From contig CAZAZE010000009.1 in NCBI GenBank assembly GCA_964489545.1, positions 3,035 to 67,034 on the forward strand: a DNA stretch of 64,000 nucleotides, in the 5' to 3' direction. Under the pieces are notes generated by a model, which saw only the letters and a list, made by a program, of their open reading frames with translations, did no database searches and was not told where the DNA came from. The stretch's first letter is position 1, and every line of letters begins with the position of its first letter. The position numbers and the translations under genes were made by a program. This stretch comes from an uncultured Bacteroidales bacterium (GTDB lineage Bacteria > Bacteroidota > Bacteroidia > Bacteroidales > JAGOPY01). This document shows positions 1 to 46,030 of this stretch, in pieces.

Positions 1-3000
1 TATTAACTGTTCGATCATTATTTTTAAGTTGATCCTTGTAAGACTTTTCTAAATTAGCAATCTTATTCATTTTGGATTTCGGAATCCGGATATATTTTTT
101 AGATAAGCCCTTCAATAAGTCTGTCACTTCAAGCTTAATAACGTCTTCTTTATCAGGATTAATATCTCTTTCCGAAATCTCAGTAAAATTATCCAATTCC
201 CTTACATAATCGATGATCTTATGCTTCAATACCGGAATTTCATCATCTGTAACCGTATCGATGTTTTTACCGAGAATTGCCTGACAAAGAGAATTTATCC
301 AGACTTTCTTATTATCCAATAAAGAAACTAAGCGTTTGAAGAAGACATTGTACTTTGGTTGAATCCGGTCTGTCTTAAGTTTTGCGAATCTGTGGCTGAA
401 GGCAGCTTTATTTTTCGGAAATACCAAATCCTCCCCAAAAATTTCAGTATTGATGTAAGTTTCAATATCTTCAATTAAAACATCTAAGGCACCATTTATC
501 TCCTGTACACACTCCTTGATTGAAATGGCAAAGTCCTCAATAGCTTCCTGTTTCTCAAGCAATTCAACAGTGTTGAAACCCAATGCATTAGGGAATTCCT
601 CGAAAAAGGTAATTTCAGGGTCAACAGCATTTGCAATGGCTTGCCTTAAGTTTATGGATTTTTCGGAAAGATTCTTTGTATTTATTGCATAAGCTGAGAG
701 GGATTTGTAAAAAATCACAAAAGGTTTAAAGGTTTCAATAAAGGATGCATTTGTAAATCTTTCCTGTTCAATCTGATTTAAGATTTCCCTGTATTTATTA
801 AACAACTCAAGCCTGGCCGGTGTCAGGTCAAACTTCTTAATATAGAAATCTTGCGGAATCTTATTAATCAAATCAAGAATCTCATCATTGAGATTGGGTA
901 AGAATGTTATTTGATTGTCTGGCCTTCCTCTTTGATAAAGAGCAAAGTCATTTTTATTGGCAATTAAAAAAACGGGGAGCCAAAAATCGACGAATCCCTG
1001 CTTTAGTTTATAAGGTCTTCGTTTCAAAAAATCAGAAAATTCCAAGAGTGATTTCCTCTCATCGCGGCAACTTTCCAGAAATTCCAGACTACCTAACCAT
1101 AATCGTTGAAAGGAGGGGGAAGAAGGGGCTGATAATTGCCATTTGCCGTCCCTGAAATTCCACATACCAGAGCCCTTAATTAATGATAGAAAAATTGATT
1201 TTTCGGGAGGAAACTTCTGATCATCAAAATTCAAGTTCTCCATCGGGGTTTCTTCCAACAAACCGGATATCAGATTTCTCCGTGCAATTGAAATAGATCC
1301 CGAAATTTTAGTCTTGTTTACAAGCTCATTCCTAAATACAGGGGTAGCGGAATAAACCTCGTAACAAATAAAGGTTAATAAATTATTGAATCCCTTCTGT
1401 TTAGCCACAGGTATTAAGTTTCCCTGAAAAAACCACTTAACAGTTTGATCATCTGAATACAATCCATCCAGAACATAGTGGTTTAGCAGATTCCTGTAGT
1501 GTGATTTAATATTTTCAAGCTCTTGGAGGGCAATTATGTCATCGGCATTATCCTCAATAACGCGTTTTATCTTTTCCAGTTCAAAGATCGTATCTTCTAT
1601 CTTGCTTGTATTAGTGAATAACCCATATAAAACAGCATCTTCCACATGTGAAGAATGCTCTTTAATTGTATTCTCGGTAATCTTATCATTAAATATCAAA
1701 TTAATATAACCGTCCAATTCATCTTCCGGCACTTCCTTAACTGGCTCATTACTAATTTTAAAGCTAAACATCCTTGGCGTTCCCGTCAAAAATGAAGCTG
1801 CTTTGGCCATTATTACGGGAAAATCAAAATAGTTATTCAGGTAAAAACTTGAGTCTTTTACACGTTCAATAAGATTACCGGCCTCATTGATTGCCAGTTC
1901 AAAATCAAGATCGGTTCCATGAAAAAGCTTATATCGGTTATCATACTGCGAATGCCTGACTATTTTGAATTTAACCAATTGATTTATAATCTCTTTAGGG
2001 TTATTAATTCCTAAAGAATATTTTCCATAGAGATTAATAAATTCATCGTCAATCGTCCCTCCCTTATTTGAAAAAATGTTAAGCAAGCCAATGGTTTTAA
2101 TCAATTTTCCAGCATCCATTGCCAGCTTTGGCATTCGCACTTCTATCCTGTCTAAAGCTGATCGTATTGAATTCCATTGGTTTAAATAAGGATTGTATTT
2201 GGTAGAAATGATAGAAAAATGATAATAGTTTAAATAATCATAAACACATGCAATATTGAAGAATGGGTTACTTTCTTTATTAAATCCATATAATCCAAAT
2301 TCTTCCTCAGTTTCAATGAAGGAGAAGAGTGACCTCTCATTTTGTCCATACTCTTGTAAAGCGAGGGTTAAGATTGAAGCTGATAATAAATCTAAGGGAT
2401 AGATTCGATTACTAAAATCAAGGGAATCAAATTCCTTCAAAGGATACAATTTTGCTTCACTGATGCTAGAATGAACTTTTTCCAGCTCTACAATTTCATT
2501 TATTACAAATCCATACTCCGCAATCTTCTCAGCAGCTAAAAATAATAGCTGCTCAACCGGTTCATTAAAATTTAATTCAACAAACCTTCCTTTAACCTTA
2601 TTCCATTCATCAATCTGGTTTTGTGTAAGTTCCAAGGAGTATGCGTTGAAATTTTTATGAAGGACCGTGATAAAAATTACCTCATGATTTTTTGAATTAA
2701 CGAACTCGGCCAATTGTTGGAGAAAGTACAATTCTTTCTCCGGATTATTCTTTGCAGCAAATTCAAGGAATTTGCCAAATTCATCAATTACAATAACTAA
2801 TCCTTTGTTTTTTAAATCCTTAAGATAATTTTTTAAACCTTCCAGTACTTTTCCTGTATCATTTGATTTCGAATCAAGCCTTAACAACTCACTGAAAGCC
2901 TGGATTATTGATTTATGCTCGCCGATAAGGTTAATAAACTGAAATTCATCAACATCCCTAAAAAGCCGAGCCCGCTTAAAGATATGGTTAGTTCCATTAA

Positions 3001-3199
3001 GCGATTGTTCTAATGCAACAATAAAACTTGATTTTCCTGATCCATAAGAACCAATAACAGAAAATGACCTACTACCCTTTTGATAGTTAGAAACTATTTG
3101 ATTATAAATGTTTTGGGCATTTGGAGTAGAGATATAATTTATCTCCTCATCAAAATCCCTTATTATATTAACCGAAGGAGTATAGGTTTTAATTTTCAT
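1..3199 (-). CDS. Large P-loop NTPase; N-terminus complete, C-terminus runs off the left window edge (>=1066 codons); SspC-like ATPase partner of the DUF4007 gene
   Basis: Absent from the supplied ORF track because it has no stop inside the window. My translation of the minus strand from the ATG at 3199 (MKIKTYTPSVNIIRDFDEE...) has no in-frame stop down to position 2. Walker A GSYGSGKS (aa 50-57, nt 3029-3052), Walker B LVIVIDE (aa 134-140), then a GQNERSLFSF motif. The ATG overlaps the stop of the upstream gene by 11 nt. Confidence 0.8.
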   Translation of the reverse strand, partial: MKIKTYTPSVNIIRDFDEEINYISTPNAQNIYNQIVSNYQKGSRSFSVIGSYGSGKSSFIVALEQSLNGTNHIFKRARLFRDVDEFQFINLIGEHKSIIQAFSELLRLDSKSNDTGKVLEGLKNYLKDLKNKGLVIVIDEFGKFLEFAAKNNPEKELYFLQQLAEFVNSKNHEVIFITVLHKNFNAYSLELTQNQIDEWNKVKGRFVELNFNEPVEQLLFLAAEKIAEYGFVINEIVELEKVHSSISEAKLYPLKEFDSLDFSNRIYPLDLLSASILTLALQEYGQNERSLFSFIETEEEFGLYGFNKESNPFFNIACVYDYLNYYHFSIISTKYNPYLNQWNSIRSALDRIEVRMPKLAMDAGKLIKTIGLLNIFSNKGGTIDDEFINLYGKYSLGINNPKEIINQLVKFKIVRHSQYDNRYKLFHGTDLDFELAINEAGNLIERVKDSSFYLNNYFDFPVIMAKAASFLTGTPRMFSFKISNEPVKEVPEDELDGYINLIFNDKITENTIKEHSSHVEDAVLYGLFTNTSKIEDTIFELEKIKRVIEDNADDIIALQELENIKSHYRNLLNHYVLDGLYSDDQTVKWFFQGNLIPVAKQKGFNNLLTFICYEVYSATPVFRNELVNKTKISGSISIARRNLISGLLEETPMENLNFDDQKFPPEKSIFLSLIKGSGMWNFRDGKWQLSAPSSPSFQRLWLGSLEFLESCRDERKSLLEFSDFLKRRPYKLKQGFVDFWLPVFLIANKNDFALYQRGRPDNQITFLPNLNDEILDLINKIPQDFYIKKFDLTPARLELFNKYREILNQIEQERFTNASFIETFKPFVIFYKSLSAYAINTKNLSEKSINLRQAIANAVDPEITFFEEFPNALGFNTVELLEKQEAIEDFAISIKECVQEINGALDVLIEDIETYINTEIFGEDLVFPKNKAAFSHRFAKLKTDRIQPKYNVFFKRLVSLLDNKKVWINSLCQAILGKNIDTVTDDEIPVLKHKIIDYVRELDNFTEISERDINPDKEDVIKLEVTDLLKGLSKKYIRIPKSKMNKIANLEKSYKDQLKNNDRTVN

Positions 3200-4073
3200 A
3201 ATAATTCCTGATCAACTGTAATGTGTCGGGAGCTTTATCGATATGCAATAAATAATTACCTGCAGTTTGAGAAAAAGTTACCTGAGGATATTTCGCAGCG
3301 ATTATTTCAATCTTTTCATAAATATCATCCTTACTTAAAAGAAACACGTTTCCAATCGAATTGTTATCCGAAAAAAGTTCATTCAAAGTAATATTGGCTT
3401 CCGTTCCATATTTATTAACGACCGCCCATAACAAGATCAAAGGTGGTAAAGAAGGTCGCTTCTTTTTTGACATAAGATAATATTCTTCTTTGGTAAGTTC
3501 ATCATCTGTCTTTACAACTCTTTCAATCAATTGCAGATCAATAAAAAGCGAAGCAAATTCTTCTTCAATATTGGCTTTTGCAGAAGCCCTGTTCGATGCC
3601 AGGTAACTTCTTAAAAAAACACTTACATCCGGCTCGAATGTTTTTTCCGAGTAAGAGTTAGGATTAAGGTTACCGGTGATCCTTTTCAAAAAACCAACGA
3701 GATGATTCTTGGTGAACTCATTCCTTTCTTTCAGAAACTGGTTAAAAAGCAGATTATACATTGACGCATAATTCTGTGTAACAAGCAAATAGTGCAAAAG
3801 CCAGCTAGTTCCAATATCCTCTAAATAAGGATCATAACCGCGATCTTCAAAAATCATCTTGGCCAATTCGGTCAAGTTGTCATTTTCATCAACTAATCCA
3901 AATGCCTTAAGCCAAAACCGGATTGAGGATACCATATTCTTGCCTACACCCAATTTAACAACGGCATCCTCATCATTGAAACTATTACCTCCTAGAAGAA
4001 ATTCAACACCTTTCTTTGGCCAAAATTGCTTACAGGTAAAGGTTTCGTGACCGGAAAATTTATATGATGTCAT
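3189..4073 (-). CDS. DUF4007-family protein (SspB-like)
   Basis: N-terminus MTSYKFSGHETFTCKQFWPKKG matches my recollection of the DUF4007 signature (F-x-GHE-x-F...W-x-KK). About 294 aa from the ATG at 4073; the track start at 4115 adds 14 unlikely residues. Confidence 0.75.
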   Translation of the reverse strand: MTSYKFSGHETFTCKQFWPKKGVEFLLGGNSFNDEDAVVKLGVGKNMVSSIRFWLKAFGLVDENDNLTELAKMIFEDRGYDPYLEDIGTSWLLHYLLVTQNYASMYNLLFNQFLKERNEFTKNHLVGFLKRITGNLNPNSYSEKTFEPDVSVFLRSYLASNRASAKANIEEEFASLFIDLQLIERVVKTDDELTKEEYYLMSKKKRPSLPPLILLWAVVNKYGTEANITLNELFSDNNSIGNVFLLSKDDIYEKIEIIAAKYPQVTFSQTAGNYLLHIDKAPDTLQLIRNYYEN

Positions 4074-4257
4074 TGAAGTTCTTAATGTATGCCACAATGG
4101 ATGTAAAATTATCAATAATCAGATGCTGATGATTCACATATTGGCAAGAGTTACCATGTTTTTTTTAACGGGTTTACTATAGATTCTTCATTTCCATGTC
4201 TGCCAGCTCACTTAGGGGATTTAGGGATTAAGTATTGGATTAAAATTGTAAAGATTA

Positions 4258-5157
4258 TTACACCACCTTTAAAAACCGCTCATACCGCCAATCCAGCCGC
4301 TCCCTATCCGGATAATCTCGTTTAGAGGATGGCAAAAGGATCTTTCGATTATTCAGTTCCTGGATGCCGTGCTTTAACATTGGGCCATCGATCTCATGAA
4401 GTATATCTTCGCGAATGTGGATGGTATAGTCAGGTGAAATGCCGATGATATTCACATCATAAGCTTTATGATGGATCTTACACAGAGTTAATCCATTTGG
4501 GACGATGGGATGTCCCAAAGGTTCAGTGTCTGGAATAATATGGGCCGCATCTAAAAGCTCTGAATGATTGAGCTTGCATAAACAGCATTGAGAATGATAC
4601 GCTGCCAAGACCCTGATTCGAAACGATTGCTGATGAGCTCTTTGCTCAACCAAGGTGGTAAAATATTTTCTTCGATAGTATTCAAGGGACGCATTCATTG
4701 GATCCGTTTCAATGGAGCCTCCAAGATATTTCTGATCATCCAGGGCTACAGTAAATTCCAGGGCGGTTTGATTGTCATGCAATATATAAGCTGGGAAGTT
4801 GGCTAAATAGTTCCCGGGAGAAATACTCATAAAATATATAAGAGGAGTCTGGCTTTTCCAGGCCATCCTTAGACCTACATTGTTGGGGTGATTGGGATCA
4901 GTTCCCCGATATTTGTAAGATAGAAAGCCATCTTCTGAAATAACATCATTATAAGGTCCTTTATATACCGTCGTTATGGATATGGGCATGAGCTCGAATT
5001 GCCTGGGCTTCCAAATGCCAGCAGGCCCAATTAAAGTAATCCTTTCGCCCTGGAAATCAAACCCGGCTTCGAGAACTATTCGAGATATGACTTCCCCATT
5101 TAGTTCAACCTGTCTTTTCAGCCAGTTAAAAGCCGCGAGTCTTATTTGCTCTTCCAT
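4258..5157 (-). CDS. HNH endonuclease (HNH_2/PF13391-like C-terminus) with an N-terminal putative modified-DNA reader domain; type IV restriction-like
   Basis: C-terminal motif CCLCKLNHSELLDAAHIIPDTEPLGHPIVPNGLTLCKIHHKAYD. The N-terminal ~190 aa carry GIWKP...YKYRGTDPNHPNNVGLRMAWKSQTPLIYF. Start set to the internal Met (MEEQIRLAAF, ATG at 5157) because the longer track ORF overlaps the opposite-strand gene and crosses the composition boundary. Confidence 0.7.
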   Translation of the reverse strand: MEEQIRLAAFNWLKRQVELNGEVISRIVLEAGFDFQGERITLIGPAGIWKPRQFELMPISITTVYKGPYNDVISEDGFLSYKYRGTDPNHPNNVGLRMAWKSQTPLIYFMSISPGNYLANFPAYILHDNQTALEFTVALDDQKYLGGSIETDPMNASLEYYRRKYFTTLVEQRAHQQSFRIRVLAAYHSQCCLCKLNHSELLDAAHIIPDTEPLGHPIVPNGLTLCKIHHKAYDVNIIGISPDYTIHIREDILHEIDGPMLKHGIQELNNRKILLPSSKRDYPDRERLDWRYERFLKVV

Positions 5158-5259
5158 TTTATTATCAATTGAGCGCCGTGCCAAGTCATTTTCAAAGTTA
5201 GCAAAGAATGAATGTGGTTCGTCATATGCTTTATTGAATATACCCCTATTTTTGTGATC

Positions 5260-5826
5260 ATGACCCACGAAATCTACCAACTCCACATCACACTGCTCGG
5301 TTCCAGGCCGAAGATCTGGCGCCGGCTTCGGGTACCGGCTGATATGAAACTGGCCAAAGTGCATAAAACCCTCCAGATCGCCTTTGGATGGACGGATTCG
5401 CACCTGCATCAATTCATTAAGGATGAAAAATTCTATACGGTGCGCTACCCTGATGATGACTTCTGGGATGATCTGAGACATGTGGATTACAAGGGAGCCA
5501 AAACCCGCATCTCCGATCTGCTGCAGTCGGAAAAGGAAGCTGTCGTGTATGAATACGACTTCGGCGATGGGTGGAGGCATGAGATCGTCCTGGAAAAGAT
5601 CCTGCCGCCGAACCCGGAACAAGCCCTGCCGCTGTGCCTCGACGGACGCCGCGCCGGCCCGCCGGAAGACTGCGGCGGAGTTTTTGGCTATGCCGAACTG
5701 CTCCGCATCCTGAAAAATCCGCGGCATAAAGAGTATGAAAGCTACCTCGAGTGGGTGGGAGGAAGGTTCGACCCGGAAGCGTTCGATATCGAAAAGGTCA
5801 ACGCCCGCCTCGCGCGGATGAGGTGA
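5260..5826 (+). CDS. Plasmid pRiA4b ORF-3-like (MM3350-like, PF07929-type) protein
   Basis: IYQLHITLLGSRPKIWRRLRVPADMKLAKVHKTLQIAFGWTDSHLHQF...YEYDFGDGWRHEIVLEKI...CLDGRRAGPPEDCGG is the typical signature of this family. ATG at 5260. Confidence 0.8.
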   Translation: MTHEIYQLHITLLGSRPKIWRRLRVPADMKLAKVHKTLQIAFGWTDSHLHQFIKDEKFYTVRYPDDDFWDDLRHVDYKGAKTRISDLLQSEKEAVVYEYDFGDGWRHEIVLEKILPPNPEQALPLCLDGRRAGPPEDCGGVFGYAELLRILKNPRHKEYESYLEWVGGRFDPEAFDIEKVNARLARMR

Positions 5827-5905
5827 TGCCTCCGCTCCTCCGTATTATTTTTAACCGCAGAGACGCAGAGACCGTTTGCCGTTTGCCTTTGCCCACCTTT
5901 ATTTC

Positions 5906-5978
5906 GCCACCAAAGCACCAATGCACAAAAGAGCACCAAAGGCTTTAGTGAATTTTGGTGTTTTCGTGTTTTTGTGGC
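5906..5978. repeat. GCCAC...GTGGC composite imperfect hairpin element (copy A)
   Basis: gccaccaaagcaccaatgcacaaaagagcaccaaagg / ctttagtgaattttggtgttttcgtgtttttgtggc. The arms are built from 8-10-nt sub-repeats. Confidence 0.7.
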
Positions 5979-6160
5979 TGAAATTCGCCGCAGAGACCGA
6001 TAGCCGTGTGCCGTTTCCAATGTCATCTTGCCTGATTCTTCTGCGGTTCACCAACACAAAAAAAAGAAAACCCCGCCGAAATTTTGATCATCGGATTTTT
6101 CTAACTTGCGCTGCCCCGCGAAACCCGCGGCATTTCCTGATCCTTAACAAACCAAAAACT

Positions 6161-8044
6161 ATGAAAACATTGAGCATGATGCTGTTGGCGCTCGCCCTCG
6201 CGCCGGTACTTTTAATCACCGCCCAGGACGCGCAGTTCGTCAAACAAACCTTTTTCGCCGATAAGAATATCGTGTTCTCGGGAATGACCCGGGGCGCCGA
6301 TGGCGGTATCCTGGTCTGCACCTCCAAGGAAAGCTTCCCGGACGACTTCAGTGGCGTAGCCATCCGCCGCCTGGCGATCAACGGCGACGTGAAAGACAAA
6401 ACGGACCTGAGACTGGATATGGTGCATAACTTCGCCCTCACGCCCGATGGCGGCTTTATCGTGCTGTTCAACTACGATATGTTCAGCGACGCGAAAGGCG
6501 TCAGGCTCGACTTCAGCAACAGCAGCGAATACTATATGGCCGAACGGGATTATGAAAACATGCCGGGGGTGGTCAAAGTGTCGAAGTACGGCAGCCTGGA
6601 ATGGGTGCTGGAACTGAAACCGGCCCAGTACTTCAGCGACGGCGACGAAAGCGCCCTCTTCGTGCTGCCGGATAACCGCTGCTGGATCGTGTTCAACTAC
6701 TCCGCCGAAGATACCACCAGCGAATTCGGCGCCCAGGACGACTTTACGCGCGCCCTGATGATCGCCGCCAACGGGACGGTCCTCTTCGAGAAAGACTTCA
6801 TCGACAACGACCACGGCGTGCTGCGTGCCCCGGTGCTGCTGGAAGACGGCCGCCTGCTGCTGTTCTCCGACACCCGGCACGCCGGCGGCGGACAGGCGCT
6901 CATGACCCTCGACACGCAGGGCAACCTTGTGCAAATGGCCGCCATCCCCGGCCTGGAAGGGGTGTTCCCGAACGATATCGTCGCCGCGGGGAACTTTGGC
7001 TTCGCATTCACCCATCACGAGAACCAGGTGAATTATGTGACGCTGATCGACCGCGCCGGGAAGACCGCCTGGAAACTCCCGGCCACCGGGAACATCCACG
7101 CGATGACCGCGGACGAAAGCGCCCTCTATGCCGTCTCCACCGAAAAAAGCCTGTATGGTGTCGCCGAAGGGACGCCGGTACGCTATACCATCACCCGCTA
7201 TGACTACAGCGGCGCCGTGACCCCGGTGATGACCCTCACCGCCGACGGGCCGGTGGATCCGAAGAAATTGATCCGGACGGAATACAGCTTCGTGATGGCC
7301 GGCAACATCAAGCAGCCAGGCGCGCAAGGGGTGGCTGTCCTGGTCACCGTGCCGGAGACCAACGCCGACATCTTCCGCAATATGAACGCCTACGACTACC
7401 GGGAATATGCCAAAGCGGTCGAAAACAACGACCTGGAACGGATCCGGGCATTGGCCGCCTTCGGGATCGACCCGGACTTCAAAGCGGGCAGTGCCGGCGA
7501 CCGCGAAACGGAAGCCGACAACCCGCTGCTCGTGGCCTTCAAGCTGGGTAAGTACGACCTCGCAGAAGAGCTGCTGAAAAGCGGCGCCGACCCCGACGCA
7601 GTCGACAAAGTTCCGGTGCGCTACTTCATCTACGAACGGGCGGAGATCTACAACCTCCCGGTCACCCCGCTGATGTACATCGCCCTGACGCCCGGCTTTT
7701 ACGACGCACCCAAATATGTAGAGCTGCTGAACAAGTACAACGCCGATTTCAAGCGCATCACGCGCGACGGAACGGCATTCCGTCAGGCGTTCCAGATGCA
7801 GAACACGGAATTCATGGACCTCTACAGCCAGTACGTTACCTTCAGCACCGACGACCTGAATAACTTATTCGCCCCGGCGTACGAGTTCAACCTCCCTCAA
7901 TCCCTGAAATGGATCCTGGACCGCGGCGCCAACGCCAACAGCACCGATTTCATGGGCGACAGCTACCTGGAAAAGGGCATGCAGTCGGACAGCAAAGAGA
8001 TCAAGGCGGTGCTGAAAGAGTGGCAGAAAACGCACAAACATTAG
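6161..8044 (+). CDS. Secreted protein with C-terminal ankyrin-like repeats
   Basis: Signal peptide MKTLSMMLLALALAPVLLITAQD at the ATG at 6161. C-terminal repeats such as NPLLVAFKLGKYDLAEELLKSGADPDAV. The upstream part of the track ORF (from 5876) is translated repeat DNA. Confidence 0.7.
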   Translation: MKTLSMMLLALALAPVLLITAQDAQFVKQTFFADKNIVFSGMTRGADGGILVCTSKESFPDDFSGVAIRRLAINGDVKDKTDLRLDMVHNFALTPDGGFIVLFNYDMFSDAKGVRLDFSNSSEYYMAERDYENMPGVVKVSKYGSLEWVLELKPAQYFSDGDESALFVLPDNRCWIVFNYSAEDTTSEFGAQDDFTRALMIAANGTVLFEKDFIDNDHGVLRAPVLLEDGRLLLFSDTRHAGGGQALMTLDTQGNLVQMAAIPGLEGVFPNDIVAAGNFGFAFTHHENQVNYVTLIDRAGKTAWKLPATGNIHAMTADESALYAVSTEKSLYGVAEGTPVRYTITRYDYSGAVTPVMTLTADGPVDPKKLIRTEYSFVMAGNIKQPGAQGVAVLVTVPETNADIFRNMNAYDYREYAKAVENNDLERIRALAAFGIDPDFKAGSAGDRETEADNPLLVAFKLGKYDLAEELLKSGADPDAVDKVPVRYFIYERAEIYNLPVTPLMYIALTPGFYDAPKYVELLNKYNADFKRITRDGTAFRQAFQMQNTEFMDLYSQYVTFSTDDLNNLFAPAYEFNLPQSLKWILDRGANANSTDFMGDSYLEKGMQSDSKEIKAVLKEWQKTHKH

Positions 8045-8051
8045 AAATTTT

Positions 8052-8075
8052 GAGGTTTAAGGTTTAAGGTTTAAG
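8052..8075. repeat. Heptamer tandem array AGGTTTA x 3
   Basis: gaggtttaaggtttaaggtttaag. The same unit recurs at 31531-31555 and, degenerate, at 26630-26650. Confidence 0.7.
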
Positions 8076-8086
8076 TTGGGGCGGCA

Positions 8087-8153
8087 CCAGTTTCCAGTTC
8101 GCAGTTCCCAGTTCCCAGTTTGCCCGAACCTGGAACTCTGGAACCCTGGAACC
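8087..8153. repeat. Hairpin made of opposed heptamer arrays (CCCAGTT x ~4 versus CTGGAAC x ~3)
   Basis: ccagtttccagttcgcagttcccagttcccagttt gcccg aacctggaactctggaaccctggaacc, directly downstream of the stop at 8044. Confidence 0.65.
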
Positions 8154-8160
8154 AACAATA

Positions 8161-8233
8161 GCCACTAAAGCACAAAAGCACAAAAGGGCACTAAAGGCTT
8201 TGGTGCATTTTAGTGTTTTCGTGTTTTTGTGGC
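8161..8233. repeat. GCCAC...GTGGC composite hairpin element (copy B), direct-repeat partner of copy A
   Basis: gccactaaagcacaaaagcacaaaagggcactaaagg / ctttggtgcattttagtgttttcgtgtttttgtggc. It shares an identical 20-mer, ttttcgtgtttttgtggctg, with copy A. Confidence 0.75.
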
Positions 8234-8287
8234 TGGAATTCACCGCCGAGGCGCAGAGTCGCAGAGCCTGTTAGCCGTTTCCATTTT

Positions 8288-8463
8288 CTTACAGTCCTAC
8301 AGTCCTGCTGTCTTACAGTCTTACAGTCCTACAGTCTTACAGTCCTAAAGTCTTACAGTCTTACCGTCCTACAGTCTTACAGTCTTACCGTCTTACCGTC
8401 TTACTGTCTTACCGTCTTACCGTCCCCGCTCCCCCGCTTCCCCGCTCCCCCGCTTCCCCGCAT
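8288..8463. repeat. Octamer tandem array, about 22 units (CTTACAGT-type grading into CCCCGCTY-type)
   Basis: Read directly. The period of 8 nt is maintained over about 176 nt upstream of the NuoE-like gene. Confidence 0.85.
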
Positions 8464-8549
8464 CTTTAGACTCCCTCCAAATTAGCGCCGGGCCGCTGGG
8501 AAACGGGAAGAAATTTTATTTTTACCACGCCAAAAAACACGGCAATCCT

Positions 8550-9077
8550 ATGCGCATTGAACGATTCATCCCCGCGGTGGGAGCTGAGGCGCAGGAAGAA
8601 ATCGACCTTTCCCTTCTCGACCGCCTCATCGAAAAATACAAGCACAAAAAAGGCAACCTCATCCCGCTGCTGCAGGGCACGCAGAATATCTACGGATTCC
8701 TGCCGCGCGTGGCTTTTGAGAAGATCGCCGCCGAGACGGGCCTCAGCCTGTCGGACATGTATGGCGTGGCCACCTTCTACGCCCAGTTCCGCCTGAAACC
8801 GGTGGGCAAACACATCATCAAAGTATGCCACGGTACGGCCTGCCACGTGCAGAACGCCAACACCATCACCGACTCGCTCCAGGAGTCGCTGAAGATCAAG
8901 GACGGCGAAACGACCGAAGACAGCCTGTTCACGCTCGAGTCGGTGGCCTGCCTGGGCTGCTGCTCCCTGGCGCCGGTGATGATGATCGGCGAGCAGACCT
9001 ACGGCAAACTCACCGGCAGCGAAGCGGTCCGGATCGTGAAGAATATCCGGATGGAAGAAGTGAAACAGAATAACTAA
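8550..9077 (+). CDS. NuoE/HoxE/HydC-like thioredoxin-fold [2Fe-2S] subunit
   Basis: KVCHGTACHV...CLGCCSLAPVMMI cysteine pattern and overall NuoE-like sequence. Confidence 0.85.
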   Translation: MRIERFIPAVGAEAQEEIDLSLLDRLIEKYKHKKGNLIPLLQGTQNIYGFLPRVAFEKIAAETGLSLSDMYGVATFYAQFRLKPVGKHIIKVCHGTACHVQNANTITDSLQESLKIKDGETTEDSLFTLESVACLGCCSLAPVMMIGEQTYGKLTGSEAVRIVKNIRMEEVKQNN

Positions 9078-9263: not shown

Positions 9264-11060
9264 ATGGAAATAAAATATGCAATGCAAAAAACAAAAGTAA
9301 TCGTCGGGCTGGGCAGCTGCGGGGTCGCGGCGGGCGCCGGCAAGGTGTACGATAAAATCAGGGCCATCCGGGAGGTGGAGCACCTCGATTTCGAGCTGAA
9401 GAAGACCTCCTGCGTCGGCATGTGCTACCGCGAGCCGCTGGTGGAGATCATCGACGAAACCGGCTCCTACCTCTACGGCGAGATCACCGAAGACCGGGCG
9501 GTGGAGCTCATCGAGAAGCACGTCAATTTGCACGACCCGGTGCGCGACTACCTCATCCAGAGCGACCTGTTCGAGACGCCGGACCGCACCTTCCTCGAGG
9601 CGCAGGTGAAGATCGTGCTGCGCAACTGCGGCTACATCGACCCGGAGCACATCGAAGAGTACGAGGCGCGCAAAGGCTACGAAGCCATACGCAGGATCGC
9701 CTCGGAGCGGATCGCCCGCACTGAGGTCATCCAGACGGTACTGAATTCCGGCATCCGCGGACGCGGCGGCGGCGGCTTCCCCACCGGCCTGAAGTGGAAG
9801 TTCGCCAACGACAACAAGTCGGACGAAAAGTACATCATCTGCAACGCCGACGAAGGCGACCCGGGCGCGTTCATGGACCGCTCGGTGCTGGAAGGCGACC
9901 CGCACTCGGTCATCGAAGGGATGATCATCGCCGCCTACGCCATCGAGGCCACCGGCGGGGTGATCTACTGCCGCGCCGAGTACCCGCTGGCCATCAAGCG
10001 CCTCAACATCGCGCTCGACCAGGCCCGGGCCAAGGGATACCTGGGGCAAGCGATCCTCGGCATTCCGGACTTCAACTTCGACATCTACATCAAGGAAGGC
10101 GCCGGCGCTTTCGTCTGCGGCGAGGAAACGGCCCTCATCGCCTCGGTGGAAGGCGAGCGCGGCATGCCCCGCAAACGCCCGCCCTTCCCGGCCGCCAGCG
10201 GCCTGTGGCGCAAGCCCACCAACATCAACAACGTGGAAACCTTCGCCAACATCCCCTGGATCATCCTCAACGGCGCGGCCGAATACGCCAAATACGGCAC
10301 CGAGAAGAGCAAGGGCACCAAGGTGTTCGCCCTGGCCGGCAAGATCAAGCGCTCGGGCCTGGTGGAGGTGCCCATGGGCATCACCATCCGCGACATCATC
10401 TTCAAGCTCGGCGGCGGCATCCAGAAAGACCGCAAGTTCAAGGCCGTGCAGATGGGCGGCCCCTCGGGCGGCTGCATCCCGGAATACATGGCCGACACCA
10501 TCGTCGACTACGACAGCGTGAACGCCACCGGCGCCATCATGGGCTCCGGCGGGATGGTCGTCATGGACGAAGACACCTGCATGGTCGACGTGGCCAAGTT
10601 CTTCCTCGACTTCACCCAGAAGGAGAGCTGCGGCAAATGCACCTTCTGCCGCGTGGGCACCAAGCGCATGCTGGAGATCCTGCAGCGCATCACCGAAGGC
10701 AGGGGCGAGGACGGCGACATCGAGCGCCTCGAGGAGCTGGCCTACCAGATCAAGGACAACTCCCTGTGCGGACTGGGCCAGACGGCGCCCAACCCGGTGC
10801 TGACCACCATCCGCTACTTCCGCCACGAGTACGAGGCGCACATCCGCGACAAGAAATGCCCGGCCAAGGCATGCAAGCAACTGCTCACCTACGAGGTCAT
10901 CGCGGAAAACTGCACCGGCTGCACCGTCTGCGCCAAGAACTGCCCGGTCGACGCCATCACCGGCAACCGCAAGGAGGTGCATTTCATCCTGCAGGACGTC
11001 TGCATCAAGTGCGGCATGTGTTACACGAAATGTAAATTCGAAGCGATAAAACTATCATGA
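9264..11060 (+). CDS. NuoF/HydB-like NADH-binding FMN/[4Fe-4S] subunit with an N-terminal 2Fe-2S-like domain and a C-terminal 2x[4Fe-4S] ferredoxin domain
   Basis: GRGGGGFPTGLKWKF (FMN), ICNADEGDPGAFMDR (NADH), ESCGKCTFCRVG, and C-terminal CTGCTVCAKNCP / CIKCGMCYTKC. Confidence 0.9.
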   Translation: MEIKYAMQKTKVIVGLGSCGVAAGAGKVYDKIRAIREVEHLDFELKKTSCVGMCYREPLVEIIDETGSYLYGEITEDRAVELIEKHVNLHDPVRDYLIQSDLFETPDRTFLEAQVKIVLRNCGYIDPEHIEEYEARKGYEAIRRIASERIARTEVIQTVLNSGIRGRGGGGFPTGLKWKFANDNKSDEKYIICNADEGDPGAFMDRSVLEGDPHSVIEGMIIAAYAIEATGGVIYCRAEYPLAIKRLNIALDQARAKGYLGQAILGIPDFNFDIYIKEGAGAFVCGEETALIASVEGERGMPRKRPPFPAASGLWRKPTNINNVETFANIPWIILNGAAEYAKYGTEKSKGTKVFALAGKIKRSGLVEVPMGITIRDIIFKLGGGIQKDRKFKAVQMGGPSGGCIPEYMADTIVDYDSVNATGAIMGSGGMVVMDEDTCMVDVAKFFLDFTQKESCGKCTFCRVGTKRMLEILQRITEGRGEDGDIERLEELAYQIKDNSLCGLGQTAPNPVLTTIRYFRHEYEAHIRDKKCPAKACKQLLTYEVIAENCTGCTVCAKNCPVDAITGNRKEVHFILQDVCIKCGMCYTKCKFEAIKLS

Positions 11061-11078
11061 CCCTTTTCTTTATATTAT

Positions 11079-11173
11079 TTAACCACAAAGGCGCACAAAG
11101 GATTTCACAAAGGCGCACAAAGGAGGATCTTCGCAGTACCACCTTCGTGTTCCTTCGTGTTCTTTCGTGGTAA
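11079..11173. repeat. TTAACCAC...GTGGTAA composite hairpin element between the NuoF-like and fusion genes
   Basis: Four CACAAAGG units face three CCTTCGTG/CTTTCGTG units. Confidence 0.7.
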
Positions 11174-11208
11174 AAAAGAATTAAAGCAAAGCACCAAAAA
11201 GGATAAAT

Positions 11209-14200
11209 ATGAGCGAAAAAGTAAATATAATCTTAAACGGCAGCATCGTCGGCGGCATCAAAGGAGAAACCATCCTGGAACTGGCCAGGCGCCATGGGAT
11301 CGAGATCCCGACCCTGTGCAACGATCCGCGGCTGGAGCCCTATACCTCCTGCTACGTCTGCGTGGTCGAGGTCGAAGGCATGCGCGGGCTGCAGCCTTCC
11401 TGCTCCACGAAGATCTCCGAGGGGATGCGCATCGAGACCGACAACGGCAAGATCCGCCAGGCGCGCAAGACCGCGCTCGACCTGCTGGTGAGCAACCATT
11501 ACGCCGATTGTATCGGGCCCTGCAAGCAGACCTGCCCGGCAGGCGTGGATGTGCAGGGCTACATCAGCCTGATCGAGAAAGGGCAGTACCACGAGGCCGT
11601 CGGGCTCATCAAGGAGACCAACCCGCTGCCGGCCATCTGCGGCCGCGTGTGCGTGCGCCCCTGCGAGGTGGCCTGCCGCCGCAACCTGCTCGACGAAGGC
11701 GCCCCCGTGGGCATCGACTACCTGAAGCGCTTCGCTTCCGACATCGACCTCGAATCGCCCGGCAAATGGAAACCCGTCATCAAGCCTTCCACCGGCAAAA
11801 AGGTCGCCGTGATCGGCGCCGGGCCCGCCGGGCTGTCGTGCGGCTTCTTCCTCCAGAAGGAAGGACACCAGGTCGATATCTTCGAGGCCAGCCCGAAAGC
11901 GGGCGGATGGCTGCGCTATGGCATCCCCGAATACCGGCTTCCGAATGACTTACTTCAGAAAGAAGTTGATAATATAACCGAGATGGGTGTGCGGATTTTC
12001 TTCAATCAGAAGTTCGGGAAAGACATCAGTTATAAGGATATTCAACAGAATTACGACGCCATGATCCTGGGCATCGGGTCGCAGAAAGGCACCCTGATCG
12101 GTTGCGACGGAGAGGATGCGGAAGGCGTTTTTTCCGGAATTGATTTCCTTAAGAACATGGAAATCACCGGAGAACGTTTTGATTTCCGCGGAAAAAAGGT
12201 CGCCGTGATCGGCGGCGGGAACACCGCCATGGACTGCTGCAGGACTTCCATCCGCTGCGGCGCCGACAAAGTGTATGTCATTTACCGCCGTACCGAAAAA
12301 GAAATGCCGGCCAATCCGATCGAGATACATGAGTCGAAACTGGAAGGAGTAGATTACATGTTTCTGACCCTTCCGGTCAAGGTAGTGAAGAGTGAACGGG
12401 GAGCGGTGAAGAGTATTATTTGCCAGAAGATGGCTCTGGGCGAACCGGATGCATCCGGGCGGAGAAGGCCCGTTCCGGTGGAAGGATCGGAATTTGAGGT
12501 GGAAGTCGATTTCATCCTGGCCGCCATCGGGCAGAAGACCGTGCCGGATTTCCTGGAGGATATCAAAGCCAGTGCCGACAACGGGGAGGTGAAAGCCAAC
12601 CGCTGGGGCGACCTCGAAGCCGATCCGGATACGTTGCAGACCGGCATCCCGTCGGTGTTCGCCGCCGGCGACGGCGTGACCGGACCGGCCACGCTCATAC
12701 AGGCCATCGCCCAGGGAAGGAAAGCTGCTCATAGCTGCGACCTCTACCTGAAAGGATTGCCGGTGGTGCCGGAACAGGCCGAATTCTTCAGCAAAAAAGA
12801 CAATTTCAAACCCCAGGTCATGGCCGACTACAAAGGCTATTTCCCGGAGCAGAAGCGCGAGGAGATGCCGACCCTCGACCCGGAGAAGCGGATGAACTTC
12901 GACGAGGTGGAGCTGGGCTACGCCTCTGAGGCCGTGGCCTTCCACGAGACGCAGCGCTGCCTGGAATGCGGCTGCACGGCCCTGTTCACCTGCGACCTGA
13001 AGAAATACTGCACCGAATACGAAGCCGACCAGAAGAAGCTGGCCGGGGAATTTAAAGAGTACCACATCGATTTCCGCCATCCCTACATCGAGATCGACAA
13101 CAACAAATGCATCCTGTGCAGCCGTTGCGTCCGCATCTGCCGCGAGGTCGTGGGCGCCAACGCCCTGGGCCTGGTGAACCGAGGGTTCGAGACCTACGTC
13201 GCGCCCAGCATGGGCAACGCCCTGCAGGACACCTATTGCGAGTCGTGCGGGCTGTGCATCACCACCTGTCCTACGGGCGCCATCACCGAGAACGTGCCGT
13301 TCAAACCCGGCCCCGTCCGGCTGGAGCCGGCAGAGACCATCTGCAACTACTGCTCGGTGGGCTGCGCCATCTCCCTCAACCACAAAAACGGCTTCGTGAT
13401 GCAGGTCACCGGCGCAGAAGGCCATGTGAACCCCGACGGCAACCTTTGCCGCTATGCCAAGTTCGGATACCATTACCTGAACGACCGGCGGCGGATCACC
13501 GCGCCCATGATGAAGGTCAACGGGAAGTTCGAAACGGTTTCCTGGGAGAAGGCATATGATGTGATCGCGCAGAAAATATCGGCCGTAAGTCCCGATGAGA
13601 ACGCCTTCTTTGCCGGCGCACGGCTCACGAACGAGGAGCAGTACCTGGTGCAAAAGCTGGCCAGGGCCGGGGCGAAGACCAACAACGTGACCAGCTTCCA
13701 TTACATGGCCCGGGGCGCCGGATACCGCGGAGACGCGATTGCCGCCACGCCCTTCAGCCAGGTCAAAGACGCCGGGAAGATCTACCTGGTCGGGTCGGAG
13801 ATCAACAGCGACAATGCGGTTTTAGGATTTAGGATTTACAATGTACAATTTGCAAAGGGGATACCGGTTTCGCTGGTAACGGACAAAACGGACAGTTCCA
13901 TGGCGCACAAGGTCGATGAGTTGATGGTGATCAAATCGTACTACCATTTCATCAAGGCCGTGAACCACTACCTGGCCTCTGCCGGGCTGCACAACGGGCT
14001 GTTCATCAAGGACAATTGCACCGGGTATGAGGAATACAAGGCCGCGCTGCTGCAGGAAAGTTTCGCGGAGCTGGTCAAACTTGCCGGTGTTTCGGAGCTG
14101 GACGTGATCGATTTCGCGAAGCGCTACAACGAAGAGCAGAACGCCATCATCGTGTTTTCGGAGAAAGAGCTTTCGTCGAACGCCTGCACCGAGCTGTTCA

Positions 14201-14931
14201 ACCTGGCTTTGCTCACCGGCAAGCTGGGCAAGACCGCCAGCGGGCTGATCGCCCTGAAGGAGAAGAACAACAGCCAGGGGCTGCACGATATGGGCATCTG
14301 CCGGAATTATGGCCCCGGAGGGGTAGCGATTGAGCATGAAGATTTACGGTCGAAGATCTCAGATCTATGGAAGATGGATTCTTTCCCTGACATGGGCAGG
14401 CCGGCCATCATTGAAGGATTGGAAGCGGGATCGCTGAAAAACCTGTTCATCTTCGGCGAGGACCCGGCCGGATGCGCCGCCGACAAGGCCCGGGTTGAGC
14501 AATGGTTTGACAAAGCCGGGTTCATCGTGGTGCAGGATTATTTCATGACTGCCACCGCCGCCCTGGCCGACTTGATCCTGCCGGCCTCATTCCCGGTGGA
14601 AACCGGAGGCAGCTTCACCAATACCCAGAAAGTGATCCAGGAGTTCGGGGCGGTATTGAAGCCTAAGGTGGAAAGGGACAACCTGCGGCAACTCGCCGAT
14701 TTGCTTGGGGCGAAGGGCGTAGGGCAAAGTGGAGATCGCAGCGACGTGATGTCGGAGCTCATCACCCTGCTGCCGGAGGCAAAGGAAAGGACCTATTCGT
14801 TTGCCCCGACGGAAGGCGACAACCCGAACCGGATGTTCCGCCACGGCTGCGACGACATCGTCCGCCGTTTTGACGAAGAATTTGCACAGGCGTTTAACCA
14901 TGTAAAAGCAGGACATTATGAAAGAGTTTAA
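11209..14931 (+). CDS. Fusion oxidoreductase: 2Fe-2S ferredoxin + GltD-like NAD(P)H FAD oxidoreductase + NuoG/FdhA-like 4Fe-4S and molybdopterin-oxidoreductase-like domain
   Basis: N-terminus CNDPRLEPYTSCYVCVVEV. GltD signatures CPAGVDVQGYI, NPLPAICGRVCVRPCEVAC, KKVAVIGAGPAGLSCG and VAVIGGGNTAMDCCRT. Then CILCSRCVRIC, CESCGLCITTCP and ICNYCSVGCAISL (MopB Fe4S4). Confidence 0.85.
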   Translation: MSEKVNIILNGSIVGGIKGETILELARRHGIEIPTLCNDPRLEPYTSCYVCVVEVEGMRGLQPSCSTKISEGMRIETDNGKIRQARKTALDLLVSNHYADCIGPCKQTCPAGVDVQGYISLIEKGQYHEAVGLIKETNPLPAICGRVCVRPCEVACRRNLLDEGAPVGIDYLKRFASDIDLESPGKWKPVIKPSTGKKVAVIGAGPAGLSCGFFLQKEGHQVDIFEASPKAGGWLRYGIPEYRLPNDLLQKEVDNITEMGVRIFFNQKFGKDISYKDIQQNYDAMILGIGSQKGTLIGCDGEDAEGVFSGIDFLKNMEITGERFDFRGKKVAVIGGGNTAMDCCRTSIRCGADKVYVIYRRTEKEMPANPIEIHESKLEGVDYMFLTLPVKVVKSERGAVKSIICQKMALGEPDASGRRRPVPVEGSEFEVEVDFILAAIGQKTVPDFLEDIKASADNGEVKANRWGDLEADPDTLQTGIPSVFAAGDGVTGPATLIQAIAQGRKAAHSCDLYLKGLPVVPEQAEFFSKKDNFKPQVMADYKGYFPEQKREEMPTLDPEKRMNFDEVELGYASEAVAFHETQRCLECGCTALFTCDLKKYCTEYEADQKKLAGEFKEYHIDFRHPYIEIDNNKCILCSRCVRICREVVGANALGLVNRGFETYVAPSMGNALQDTYCESCGLCITTCPTGAITENVPFKPGPVRLEPAETICNYCSVGCAISLNHKNGFVMQVTGAEGHVNPDGNLCRYAKFGYHYLNDRRRITAPMMKVNGKFETVSWEKAYDVIAQKISAVSPDENAFFAGARLTNEEQYLVQKLARAGAKTNNVTSFHYMARGAGYRGDAIAATPFSQVKDAGKIYLVGSEINSDNAVLGFRIYNVQFAKGIPVSLVTDKTDSSMAHKVDELMVIKSYYHFIKAVNHYLASAGLHNGLFIKDNCTGYEEYKAALLQESFAELVKLAGVSELDVIDFAKRYNEEQNAIIVFSEKELSSNACTELFNLALLTGKLGKTASGLIALKEKNNSQGLHDMGICRNYGPGGVAIEHEDLRSKISDLWKMDSFPDMGRPAIIEGLEAGSLKNLFIFGEDPAGCAADKARVEQWFDKAGFIVVQDYFMTATAALADLILPASFPVETGGSFTNTQKVIQEFGAVLKPKVERDNLRQLADLLGAKGVGQSGDRSDVMSELITLLPEAKERTYSFAPTEGDNPNRMFRHGCDDIVRRFDEEFAQAFNHVKAGHYERV

Positions 14932-32343: not shown

Positions 32344-33428
32344 TTTGCTTTGAAGCATGATTTCGGTTACCGGGTGACGATGATCTTCCGCATGACCTGG
32401 CTCTGGCCGGTGCGGATGGTCAGGGTGTAGATGCCTTTGGGCACGTTGCCCAGGTCGATGTCGAGCCGGCCCTGTCCGCTGATGACCACGTCGGCCTTTT
32501 CGTAGATGCGGATACCAAGGTGGTTCACCACTTCGGCCTGGTAGGTGGTTTCTGTCTTATTGACAAAGGCCACGGTGAACTTCCCGCTGTTGGGTATGGG
32601 GAAGATATTCAGGCTGGTGCCGGGCAGTTCGTCGATCCCCACGAAGATGACCTCCACGTGGTTGGATTCCTGTGAGGAGCAACCGTTGAGGGTGACGATG
32701 GTCCAGTAGAAGCCTTCCTCTTCGGCCTGGTGGGTCTGCCCGGTGGCGCCTTCGATGGGGTTACCGTTGAAGTACCACTGGTTTCCGTCGGGTGCGCTGC
32801 TGGTGAGCAGGTAGTCGCCGTCGACGGTCACGACCGGTGCGGGCGGGATGGGGTTGACGGTGACGAAGAAGGCGGGCGAGGCCGGTCCGTTACCGCAGTT
32901 GTTGACTGCGGCCACGGTGATGTTGCCGGAGCTGGCGCCGGGTCCGAAGAAGACCTTGATGGCGGGTGTTCCTTCGCCTTCGAAGATGGTGGCGCCGGCG
33001 GGCACGGTCCAGTCGTAGGAGAGGGCTCCGGCGACGGGCGCCACGCTGTAGCTGGCGTTTTGGCCCATGCAGAGTTCGTCAACGCCGGTGATGGCGCCGG
33101 GTGCCACGGGCACGCCCATGACGGTGACGGCGAAGCTGGCCGGTGTTGCGGCGGGGCATCCGGAAGCGTTGTCATAATTGACCGTGACGGTCTTGCTGCC
33201 CGGGGTGGTCCAGTTGACTTCGATCTGGTAGGTTCCCTGGCCGGAGACGATGGTGCCGCCGGTGGAGACGGTCCAGGAATAGTCGCTGAATCCCTGCTCG
33301 GTGGTGTAGACGAACAGGCCGGAGTTGGCGCACATCATATTCGATCCGGAGATGGTCGGCGAAGGCAGCCCGCTGACCTGGACGGGCATCACGGCGGGCG
33401 CGGCGGCGGGGCAGCCGGCGGCGCTGGT
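32312..33428. repeat. 1117-bp block identical to 39015-40131 (copy 1)
   Basis: Identical C-terminal 354 codons. Antisense-frame track ORFs are also identical (32828..33175 versus 39531..39878, both 115 aa), and spot checks of the DNA lines agree. The first difference is at 33429 (g) versus 40132 (a). Confidence 0.85.
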
Positions 33429-39046: not shown

Positions 39047-40131
39047 TTTGCTTTGAAGCATGATTTCGGTTACCGGGTGACGATGATCTTCCGCATGACC
39101 TGGCTCTGGCCGGTGCGGATGGTCAGGGTGTAGATGCCTTTGGGCACGTTGCCCAGGTCGATGTCGAGCCGGCCCTGTCCGCTGATGACCACGTCGGCCT
39201 TTTCGTAGATGCGGATACCAAGGTGGTTCACCACTTCGGCCTGGTAGGTGGTTTCTGTCTTATTGACAAAGGCCACGGTGAACTTCCCGCTGTTGGGTAT
39301 GGGGAAGATATTCAGGCTGGTGCCGGGCAGTTCGTCGATCCCCACGAAGATGACCTCCACGTGGTTGGATTCCTGTGAGGAGCAACCGTTGAGGGTGACG
39401 ATGGTCCAGTAGAAGCCTTCCTCTTCGGCCTGGTGGGTCTGCCCGGTGGCGCCTTCGATGGGGTTACCGTTGAAGTACCACTGGTTTCCGTCGGGTGCGC
39501 TGCTGGTGAGCAGGTAGTCGCCGTCGACGGTCACGACCGGTGCGGGCGGGATGGGGTTGACGGTGACGAAGAAGGCGGGCGAGGCCGGTCCGTTACCGCA
39601 GTTGTTGACTGCGGCCACGGTGATGTTGCCGGAGCTGGCGCCGGGTCCGAAGAAGACCTTGATGGCGGGTGTTCCTTCGCCTTCGAAGATGGTGGCGCCG
39701 GCGGGCACGGTCCAGTCGTAGGAGAGGGCTCCGGCGACGGGCGCCACGCTGTAGCTGGCGTTTTGGCCCATGCAGAGTTCGTCAACGCCGGTGATGGCGC
39801 CGGGTGCCACGGGCACGCCCATGACGGTGACGGCGAAGCTGGCCGGTGTTGCGGCGGGGCATCCGGAAGCGTTGTCATAATTGACCGTGACGGTCTTGCT
39901 GCCCGGGGTGGTCCAGTTGACTTCGATCTGGTAGGTTCCCTGGCCGGAGACGATGGTGCCGCCGGTGGAGACGGTCCAGGAATAGTCGCTGAATCCCTGC
40001 TCGGTGGTGTAGACGAACAGGCCGGAGTTGGCGCACATCATATTCGATCCGGAGATGGTCGGCGAAGGCAGCCCGCTGACCTGGACGGGCATCACGGCGG
40101 GCGCGGCGGCGGGGCAGCCGGCGGCGCTGGT
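39015..40131. repeat. 1117-bp block identical to 32312-33428 (copy 2)
   Basis: As for copy 1. Confidence 0.85.
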
Positions 40132-45747: not shown

Positions 45748-46030
45748 GATTTTAGGATTAAAGTTCATATGAAGACTTAAAAAATCATTACATGATTATT
45801 ACAAAATCAACAAAATCAAAAACGAGAAACTGGAAGAATTTTGAGAGAACCCGGGAAAGAAATATGAGTATAAAGTTACGAAATAACCTTTCGAAATATT
45901 AAGCTATGTGTTAAAAAAATGATGATTTCGATCACTTTTTGAATACAGATCTGATAAGGAGCACAGGGTGGCCTGATTTCAGGTTGACCGGGATTCTGAT
46001 TATCTTTGCCCTTCATTAAACAGTTCAACC

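Follow-up and report, generated by a model that had tools for sequence, protein, structure and literature searches.

At its left end, the 64,000-nucleotide stretch of DNA analysed here (the window; contig CAZAZE010000009.1 of assembly GCA_964489545.1, from an uncultured Bacteroidales bacterium) carries genes for an HNH nuclease, a DUF4007 protein and a large P-loop ATPase, all three on the minus strand. A sequence-only reading had described this same-strand trio and had proposed that the nuclease is the restriction arm of an Ssp module for phosphorothioate (PT) modification of DNA. The trio is as described, but the pairing failed our neighbourhood analyses. The left end very probably belongs to a defence island that was acquired by horizontal transfer and whose right-hand part it forms. 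In this reading, the island consists of three independent units, namely a standard sspB-sspC-sspD module, a paraMORC ATPase-histidine kinase gene directly past sspD, and a stand-alone SRA-HNH nuclease, and is thus an ordinary arrangement rather than a new Ssp-HNH system.

The module was identified from its three genes. The 294-amino-acid (aa) protein encoded by sspB (3189..4073, minus strand) matches Pfam DUF4007 (PF13182) with an E value of 6.9e-74 over profile positions 1-288 of 288, and the PADLOC SspB model at 1.5e-96. The 3' end of sspB shares an 11-nt overlap with the start of sspC, through which the two genes are translationally coupled. sspC encodes the P-loop ATPase and runs off the left edge (1..3199, minus strand), with codons 1-1066 of 1084 in the window. 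Its product aligns to PADLOC SspC (PDLC02776; E=0, 1222 bits) with residues 13-1053 on profile positions 1-1036 of 1039, matches BrxC (5.9e-54) and the KAP/AAA Pfam families more weakly, and contains a Walker A motif (GSYGSGKS, residues 50-57) and a Walker B-like motif (VIVIDEFGK). The exact SspB protein is also encoded on two Logan contigs, L001 and L002 (runs SRR12489243 and SRR12489248), which are 100% identical to the window across 5977 and 5333 bp and add 3009 bp leftwards. L001 holds the complete, 1084-aa sspC, the last 18 codons of which lie beyond the window edge, followed by an overlapping gene for a 368-aa SspD (PADLOC SspD, 1.3e-88; Pfam PAPS_reduct, 3.8e-06). SspD has the PP-loop motif SGGKDS at residues 11-16 and matches the 277-position PADLOC SspD profile in two separate stretches. 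The family assignments made beforehand, DUF4007/SspB for the 294-aa protein, the Ssp ATPase for the giant P-loop NTPase of at least 1066 aa and a PAPS-reductase-like SspD just past the left edge, were all confirmed, and judged by these sequence matches sspB-sspC-sspD is the known Ssp phosphorothioation module.

The SspABCD module has reportedly been characterised in Vibrio cyclitrophicus FF75 and E. coli 3234/A, in work attributed to Xiong et al. 2020 and Wang et al. 2021. The genes studied here resemble it in the sspB(DUF4007)-sspC-sspD order, the overlapping genes, the end-to-end PADLOC matches of all three proteins, the SGGKDS motif of SspD and the Walker A motif of SspC; as many other systems do, they lack an adjacent sspA. 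They differ from it in that neither SspE nor SspFGH lies beside the module, and in forming a Bacteroidota-type cassette with a 368-aa SspD and other downstream partners. There is also a likeness to BREX type 4: parts of BrxP are matched by both SspB and SspD, and BrxC by SspC, in agreement with the view of BrxP as an SspD-SspB fusion (PMC12914056). However, this locus has separate genes with far higher scores against the SspB, SspC and SspD models, and neither brxZ nor brxL was seen.

By homology with the characterised systems, sspB-sspC-sspD would put single-strand PT marks on host DNA, and we infer both this chemistry and its motif from the published Ssp mechanism of binding and nicking, ATPase activity, sulfur insertion and use of PT as a self mark (PMC9646914, PMC8092258, PMC10853773, PMC12914056). 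In this scheme, SspB would be the DNA-binding and nicking subunit that acts at a short motif, SspC would provide ATP-driven scanning or remodelling, and SspD would be the PP-loop (SGGKDS) enzyme that inserts sulfur to give single-strand PT, which is of the CpsCA type in known systems. A cysteine desulfurase with its gene elsewhere, SspA or IscS, would supply the sulfur.

Gene neighbourhoods were compared from both sides. On the Ssp side, an SspD scan of 185,579 species-representative genomes yielded 80 loci, mostly from Bacteroidota, each with up to 10 kb of flank. Most of these hold sspB, sspC and sspD in the same order, no family recurs upstream of sspB across the 80 loci, and none of them (0/80) contains a homologue of the HNH protein within 10 kb (tblastn, E<=1e-5). 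In the reverse comparison, homologues of the HNH protein (46-71% identity) were located in 80 metagenomic loci totalling 583 kb, and these were likewise free of SspB, SspC, SspD and paraMORC-histidine kinase homologues (0/80). The recurrent neighbours there were a second HNH_2 paralogue (16/72 loci) and the type I subunit HsdR (7 loci). This paralogue is shorter, about 257 aa, and immediately adjoins the first gene on the same strand (L090-L169).

Closer homologues of the HNH protein also occur in unrelated contexts: the one at 80% identity adjoins an HNH-HIT gene, the one at 76% lies near an IS110 transposase and the one at 75% stands among housekeeping genes, in each case with no ssp genes. 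The layout PRiA4_ORF3, HNH, sspB-sspC-sspD recurs only with the homologue of 95% identity (L084, L085); PRiA4_ORF3 is the gene family that borders the island in the window. This layout is 92-94% identical between L084 and the window at the nucleotide level and, because the GC-rich backbone is also common to both (94% identity), L084 represents a sister lineage with an inherited junction and not an independent occurrence. The neighbourhood conservation in relatives on which the proposed Ssp-HNH pairing depended was therefore not found, as the adjacency is limited to this roughly 93% identical sister lineage.

The limits of the Ssp cassette were set by comparing four backbones: the window with L001, the sister contig L084, L003 from a Bacteroidales metagenome-assembled genome (MAG), and L086. 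In blastn comparisons, L003 was 92% identical to the window plus L001 over exactly 5226 bp, from window position 4077, 4 bp ahead of the sspB ATG, to the sspD stop, with unrelated flanks. The same limits were found in L086, where a subtilase gene lies upstream, and in both L003 and L086 the homology starts within 4-13 nt of the sspB start. In L084, homology runs on through the HNH gene and the GC-rich backbone, yet ends at the sspD stop. Overall, the cassette shows about 93% nucleotide identity across the four backbones, with homology stopping at the sspD stop in each, and its guanine-plus-cytosine (GC) content is 31-38% in all of them, while the backbones themselves range from 47% to 59%. Because its limits are exact and it is AT-rich in every backbone, sspBCD is a sharply bounded, recently exchanged unit, which was acquired horizontally and is mobile from the sspB start to the sspD stop; the HNH gene, with 43% GC, is outside this unit. 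The two are separated by a 184-bp intergenic region (4074..4257, no strand), at the sspB-proximal end of which, at about 4077, the shared cassette starts. The only promoter-like match touching this spacer spans the HNH stop codon (4273-4245), and the sigma-70 promoter and terminator scan of 3000-5400 that produced it, with a model not covering Bacteroidota promoters, performed no better than on shuffled sequences.

The composition of the window places the HNH gene between the cassette and the host-like DNA. As the sequence-only reading had stated, the left end is AT-rich relative to the right (34.2% GC across 1-4257 versus 54.2% across 5212-64000), and the windowed GC check it had suggested, together with GC at third codon positions (GC3), marks the island as compositionally foreign to the right-hand DNA. 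The large shift it had described is also real, but does not lie at about 5260 and is not a single step: GC is 0.32-0.38 across 1-4250, 0.41-0.43 across 4250-5250 and 0.51-0.66 further right, with 42.9% for the HNH gene itself (4258-5157). GC3 rises likewise, from 0.33-0.34 in sspB and sspC through 0.42 in the HNH gene to 0.66 in the first gene on the right. Judged by gene starts and composition, the lower-GC DNA really ends on the right at the 54-bp divergent spacer (5158..5211, no strand) and not at position 5260. Beyond it, the first host-like gene belongs to the PRiA4_ORF3 family (5212..5826, plus strand; Pfam PF07929, 1.2e-65; GC3 0.66) and is a boundary marker outside the Ssp module. No integrase or tRNA boundary had been visible from the letters, and none emerged here: the whole 64-kb window contains 0 tRNAs, no Rfam family scored above threshold in window 1-9000, and a search for att-like repeats at the island boundary gave nothing convincing.

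The HNH gene (4258..5157, minus strand) encodes a stand-alone SRA-HNH nuclease of 299 aa, as judged from Pfam HNH_2, the starts of homologues, and AlphaFold2 with Foldseek. A longer open reading frame (ORF) of 489 aa (5727..4258), which is also a Logan gene call, was rejected as an over-extension artefact, because its first 190 codons overlap the plus-strand PRiA4_ORF3 gene (5212-5826) and because homologues of about 300 aa share the start methionine of the shorter gene at 5157; indeed, 37/41 aligned homologues are 293-305 aa long and start at the same MEEQIRL methionine. The protein matches Pfam HNH_2 at 1.3e-07 and has more than 7500 homologues, which are about 300 aa long and, where named, mostly called 'putative restriction endonuclease'. 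The zinc and catalytic residues C191, C194, H206, N221, C226, H229 and H230 (CCCH and H-N-H) are invariant in the 41 homologues. Exact-protein look-ups of the 299-aa HNH protein and the PRiA4 protein returned 0 indexed contigs.

The HNH protein is laid out as an SRA-like beta domain (residues 20-140, approximately), a long helix (153-187) and the HNH_2 domain, and its AlphaFold2 model has a predicted local distance difference test (pLDDT) score of 81.6 overall and of about 90 over residues 1-140. Foldseek against the PDB placed TagI (6ghs; E 8e-7, probability 1.0) at the top and as the best whole-length match, followed by the SRA domain of SUVH5 (5e-4, probability 1.0) and then those of UHRF1/NP95, KRYPTONITE/SUVH6 and ScoMcrA. 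The N-terminal reader-like domain proposed from the letters is thus present and has an SRA fold. The evidence for SRA is at the level of the fold, as the protein has no Pfam SRA match and PDB sequence searches with the protein or its profile found nothing significant. A sulfur-binding domain (SBD) of the winged helix-turn-helix (wHTH) type was rejected for the N-terminus, which is beta-rich and SRA-like. The NCBIfam model NF045808 for PT-DNA-binding restriction enzymes stays below its cutoff (1e-17; 64.2 bits versus 180), and its alignment is limited to profile positions 157-281, corresponding to the HNH half.

TagI, a nuclease of Type IV, cleaves DNA in which cytosine is modified. The protein studied here resembles it in length (299 aa versus 285-311 aa), in the order of an N-terminal SRA-like beta domain and an HNH (beta-beta-alpha-Me) domain (PDB 6GHS), and in that SRA-HNH genes, like the HNH family here, typically stand alone. 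It differs in belonging to a separate large family (>7500 members), often with a second HNH_2 paralogue adjoining. With ScoMcrA, SprMcrA and EcoWI, which have an SBD-(SRA)-HNH architecture, it shares a related HNH_2-type nuclease and an SRA domain like that of ScoMcrA (Foldseek 5zmn, E 0.018), but not the sulfur-binding wHTH domain. From its modelled fold, the HNH protein is best read as a self-sufficient Type IV enzyme that recognises modified cytosine, rather than as a PT reader; PT-dependent cutting would be self-toxic in a PT-modifying host. As a separate unit, the enzyme would use its SRA domain to flip out a modified cytosine and its HNH domain to cut close by. Such an enzyme would attack phage or plasmid DNA carrying 5-methylcytosine, 5-hydroxymethylcytosine or related bases, and would complement the PT barrier against hypermodified phages. 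Because PT in the DNA backbone would be irrelevant to SRA-HNH, it could coexist with sspBCD in the same host.

While no partner family recurs upstream of sspB, the 80 SspD loci show that the variable partner position of Ssp cassettes is downstream of sspD. The gene past sspD is usually on the strand of sspD, with its start at about -37 to +30 nt. The first gene in this slot encodes a DUF262/GmrSD_N protein in 18/80 loci, where the next encodes a protein kinase or a SIR2_2 protein, and a paraMORC-histidine kinase in 11/80 loci (present in 15). Other contents are a DndB-like pair, a nucleoside-deoxyribosyltransferase-like pair and several sets with no assignment, among which are trios and pairs of 541+370+303 aa and 228+130 aa (L003-L082). 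Within the first five genes past sspD, 31 of the 80 loci have sspA, 29 have a gene for a PbeA-like helicase and 25 have one for a PbeC-like ATPase. Behind the slot contents often come sspA, the PbeA- and PbeC-like genes and a convergent gene, the product of which is about 800-830 aa long and matches HATPase_c_3 weakly. A comparison with the sister contig L084, which has DUF262 and kinase genes in the slot, places the swap of slot contents exactly at the sspD stop. Neither the HNH protein nor the gene past sspD matched PADLOC SspE, and PADLOC SspF, SspG and SspH had no match in the flanking genes, in sequence up to the end of L001, or in the downstream cluster representatives tested; an SspE or SspFGH identity for the neighbouring genes was rejected on these grounds. 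PADLOC and Pfam searches with the 377-aa and 246-aa slot partners returned nothing.

In the island analysed here, the slot is occupied by a gene for a paraMORC GHKL ATPase-histidine kinase fusion, recognised from Pfam and motifs, which lies left of window position 1 and directly past sspD (L001:7131-8984). The first 618-636 aa are available, as L001 and L002 end at the same base inside the gene. The fragment has an N-terminal HATPase_c_3 domain with GHKL (Bergerat ATP-binding) motifs and, at residue 569 (H569), the invariant H-box YHELxQP. A homologue search with the fragment gave a best match of 70% identity and no complete version of the protein from this genome, and full-length relatives of about 775 aa add a C-terminal HATPase_c domain with N and G boxes. 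The relatives, one of which is on L004, are adjoined by a gene for a partner of about 380 aa in 14/15 loci and in L170 and L173. In a model of this partner (378 aa; pLDDT 88), an N-terminal receiver (REC) domain aligns to the PhoB receiver with template modelling (TM) scores of 0.72-0.77 and dominates the Foldseek matches of the whole protein, and residues D58, S92 and K112 are invariant. On L170, which has the same sspBCD and paraMORC-kinase genes, a tyrosine integrase lies upstream of sspB, and convergent genes on the far side encode a 573-aa protein, a different HNH_2 protein of 321 aa and an 828-aa GHKL-like protein (regions L170:221-1453 and L170:11094-16624). This 321-aa protein shares just the HNH domain with the HNH protein of the window, at 27% identity.

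Two-component-like elements related to paraMORC (HATPase_c_3+HEF_HK+HATPase_c and Response_reg_2) have been tied to restriction-modification (R-M) systems (Bellieny-Rabelo et al. 2021, PMC8011034). The gene past sspD and its relatives share with these elements the architecture of paraMORC GHKL domain, H-box and C-terminal HATPase_c, as well as the adjacent receiver-like partner with no known output domain and the Dcm, Vsr and HNH_2 neighbourhoods. The Pfam models PF19191 and PF19192 (HEF_HK, Response_reg_2) did not match the local fragment or our proteins P0141, P0237, P0261 and P0352 at E<=1. A link to sspBCD is absent from the text of PMC8011034, which has no PAPS, DUF4007, Dnd or phosphorothio- wording. 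Given the exchangeable slot, the paraMORC-kinase is the most plausible candidate for a PT-coupled arm in this island; by analogy with the characterised systems, an effector encoded downstream would take PT as a self mark. It is possible, though we put this forward tentatively, that the slot is a plug-in site for PT-coupled effectors and that its occupant here is an undescribed Ssp arm, a cytoplasmic paraMORC-kinase/receiver relay with an output region of about 250 aa.

Several observations weigh against three independent units or against the roles given to them. The SRA assignment rests on a predicted structure with TM scores of just 0.47-0.50 to isolated SRA domains, and a profile of the HNH family matches the TagI sequence weakly (E 0.44) and in the HNH region only. 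A tblastn search with Bacteroidota SspA found no gene for a cysteine desulfurase in the 64-kb window, which does not disqualify the module because sspA is often unlinked and IscS can stand in for SspA (PMC12914056); the position past sspD at which sspA is often found in related loci lies beyond the sequence here. Every assembly found breaks inside the paraMORC-kinase gene, leaving the rest of the island unseen. In Mucilaginibacter (L173), the paraMORC-kinase pair stands beside Vsr-Dcm-EcoRII with no ssp genes, and the kinase therefore need not read PT. Finally, the HNH-sspB junction is kept in the sister lineage at about 7% divergence, and the scan of 3000-5400 found no terminator-like site in the 184-bp spacer, so that co-transcription of the HNH gene with sspB and functional cross-talk may occur. 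This junction, with the HNH gene on the same strand 184 bp upstream of sspB, also speaks for the view that the HNH reader-nuclease is a dedicated Ssp restriction arm that tells PT-marked self from unmarked foreign DNA, as do the closeness of its HNH domain to that of PT-DNA-binding restriction enzymes (NF045808) and the wHTH(SBD)+SRA+HNH proteins that are frequent neighbours of Dnd systems and have been proposed as their alternative restriction components (PMC10853773). Nevertheless, we consider such a dedicated arm highly improbable: the two families were not found together in either set of 80 loci, the homologues with 80%, 76% and 75% identity have other, unrelated neighbours, the mobile cassette leaves the HNH gene out at a limit that also separates 34% from 43% GC, the protein has no SBD/wHTH and reaches the PT-DNA-binding model with its HNH half alone, and the SRA fold of its reader domain is one that recognises bases rather than the backbone.

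It is likewise unlikely, though less so, that sspBCD is an orphan modification module with an epigenetic or redox function, or one that protects from another PT-reading system, and that its neighbours are independent defence genes. In favour of this, 84% of sspBCD modules have neither sspE nor sspFGH, with bona fide orphans raised as one possibility (PMC8092258), PADLOC detected no SspE, SspF, SspG or SspH in the gene past sspD, and the paraMORC-kinase pair is also found apart from ssp genes, beside the Dcm R-M system mentioned above. On the other hand, the genes past sspD start close to its stop and on its strand in most of the 80 loci, they form a limited set of recurrent modules, like exchangeable effectors and not like random neighbours, and the swap between the window and L084 falls exactly at the sspD stop. 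Were the AT-rich block a chimera of two organisms, produced by assembly or binning, this would account for the abrupt 20-point GC jump, for the nearest cassette relative being in a different MAG and for the break of all assemblies at the same point inside the gene past sspD. However, the junction at 5158-5211 recurs in four separate run assemblies, identically in SRR12489243 and SRR12489248 and with the same layout at about 7% divergence in SRR27676599 and SRR6924042, and among the genes of the GC-rich side are some for type IX secretion system (T9SS) cargo proteins, typical of Bacteroidota, the phylum of the cassette relatives. A chimera was rejected on this evidence and has next to no probability left. 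The reading as a defence island of three independent units, with a standard sspBCD cassette, is the one we retain.

Further to the right, several features of the host-like DNA were recorded. A 101-nt direct repeat (84% identical; 5906-6006 and 8161-8261) brackets a 722-aa ankyrin-repeat ORF (5876-8044), the true start of which is probably downstream of the first repeat. Related 30-nt repeat copies lie around the same ORF at 5864-5893, 5989-6018 and 8260-8289, and the gap past it holds about 18 tandem copies of an 8-nt unit (8287-8430; variants TCTTACAG and CCTACAGT). Genes for an NADH-dependent Fe-S/molybdopterin oxidoreductase (9264-14931), with a Nuo51-like subunit and a 1240-aa fusion protein, indicate an anaerobic lifestyle of the host. 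Three proteins of 2100-2200 aa are encoded on the minus strand (32367-38807, 39070-45768 and 52274-58771), 2/3 of which have PKD_6 repeats and T9SS C-terminal sorting domains (Por_Secre_tail), pointing to a Bacteroidota host.

The value of these results is mainly corrective: the neighbourhood analysis does not support the proposed Ssp-HNH pairing, and what remains is a defence island with a standard sspBCD cassette. As by-products, the work yielded a cassette that acts as a mobile unit with precise limits, about 93% identical in four backbones, and a hypervariable slot past sspD. The contents of this slot (DUF262+kinase, DUF262+SIR2, DndB-like, deoxyribosyltransferase-like, paraMORC-histidine kinase+receiver and unassigned trios) supply concrete candidates for the restriction partners that are missing from the 84% of sspBCD modules noted above, and the question of these partners was posed in PMC8092258. 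The more interesting lead, hypothetical and outside the window, is the exchangeable slot with its paraMORC-kinase occupant. If the proposed relay holds true, DNA or PT status would be sensed by a MORC-like module and passed by phosphotransfer to an effector, and the SRA-HNH nuclease would be an independent add-on.

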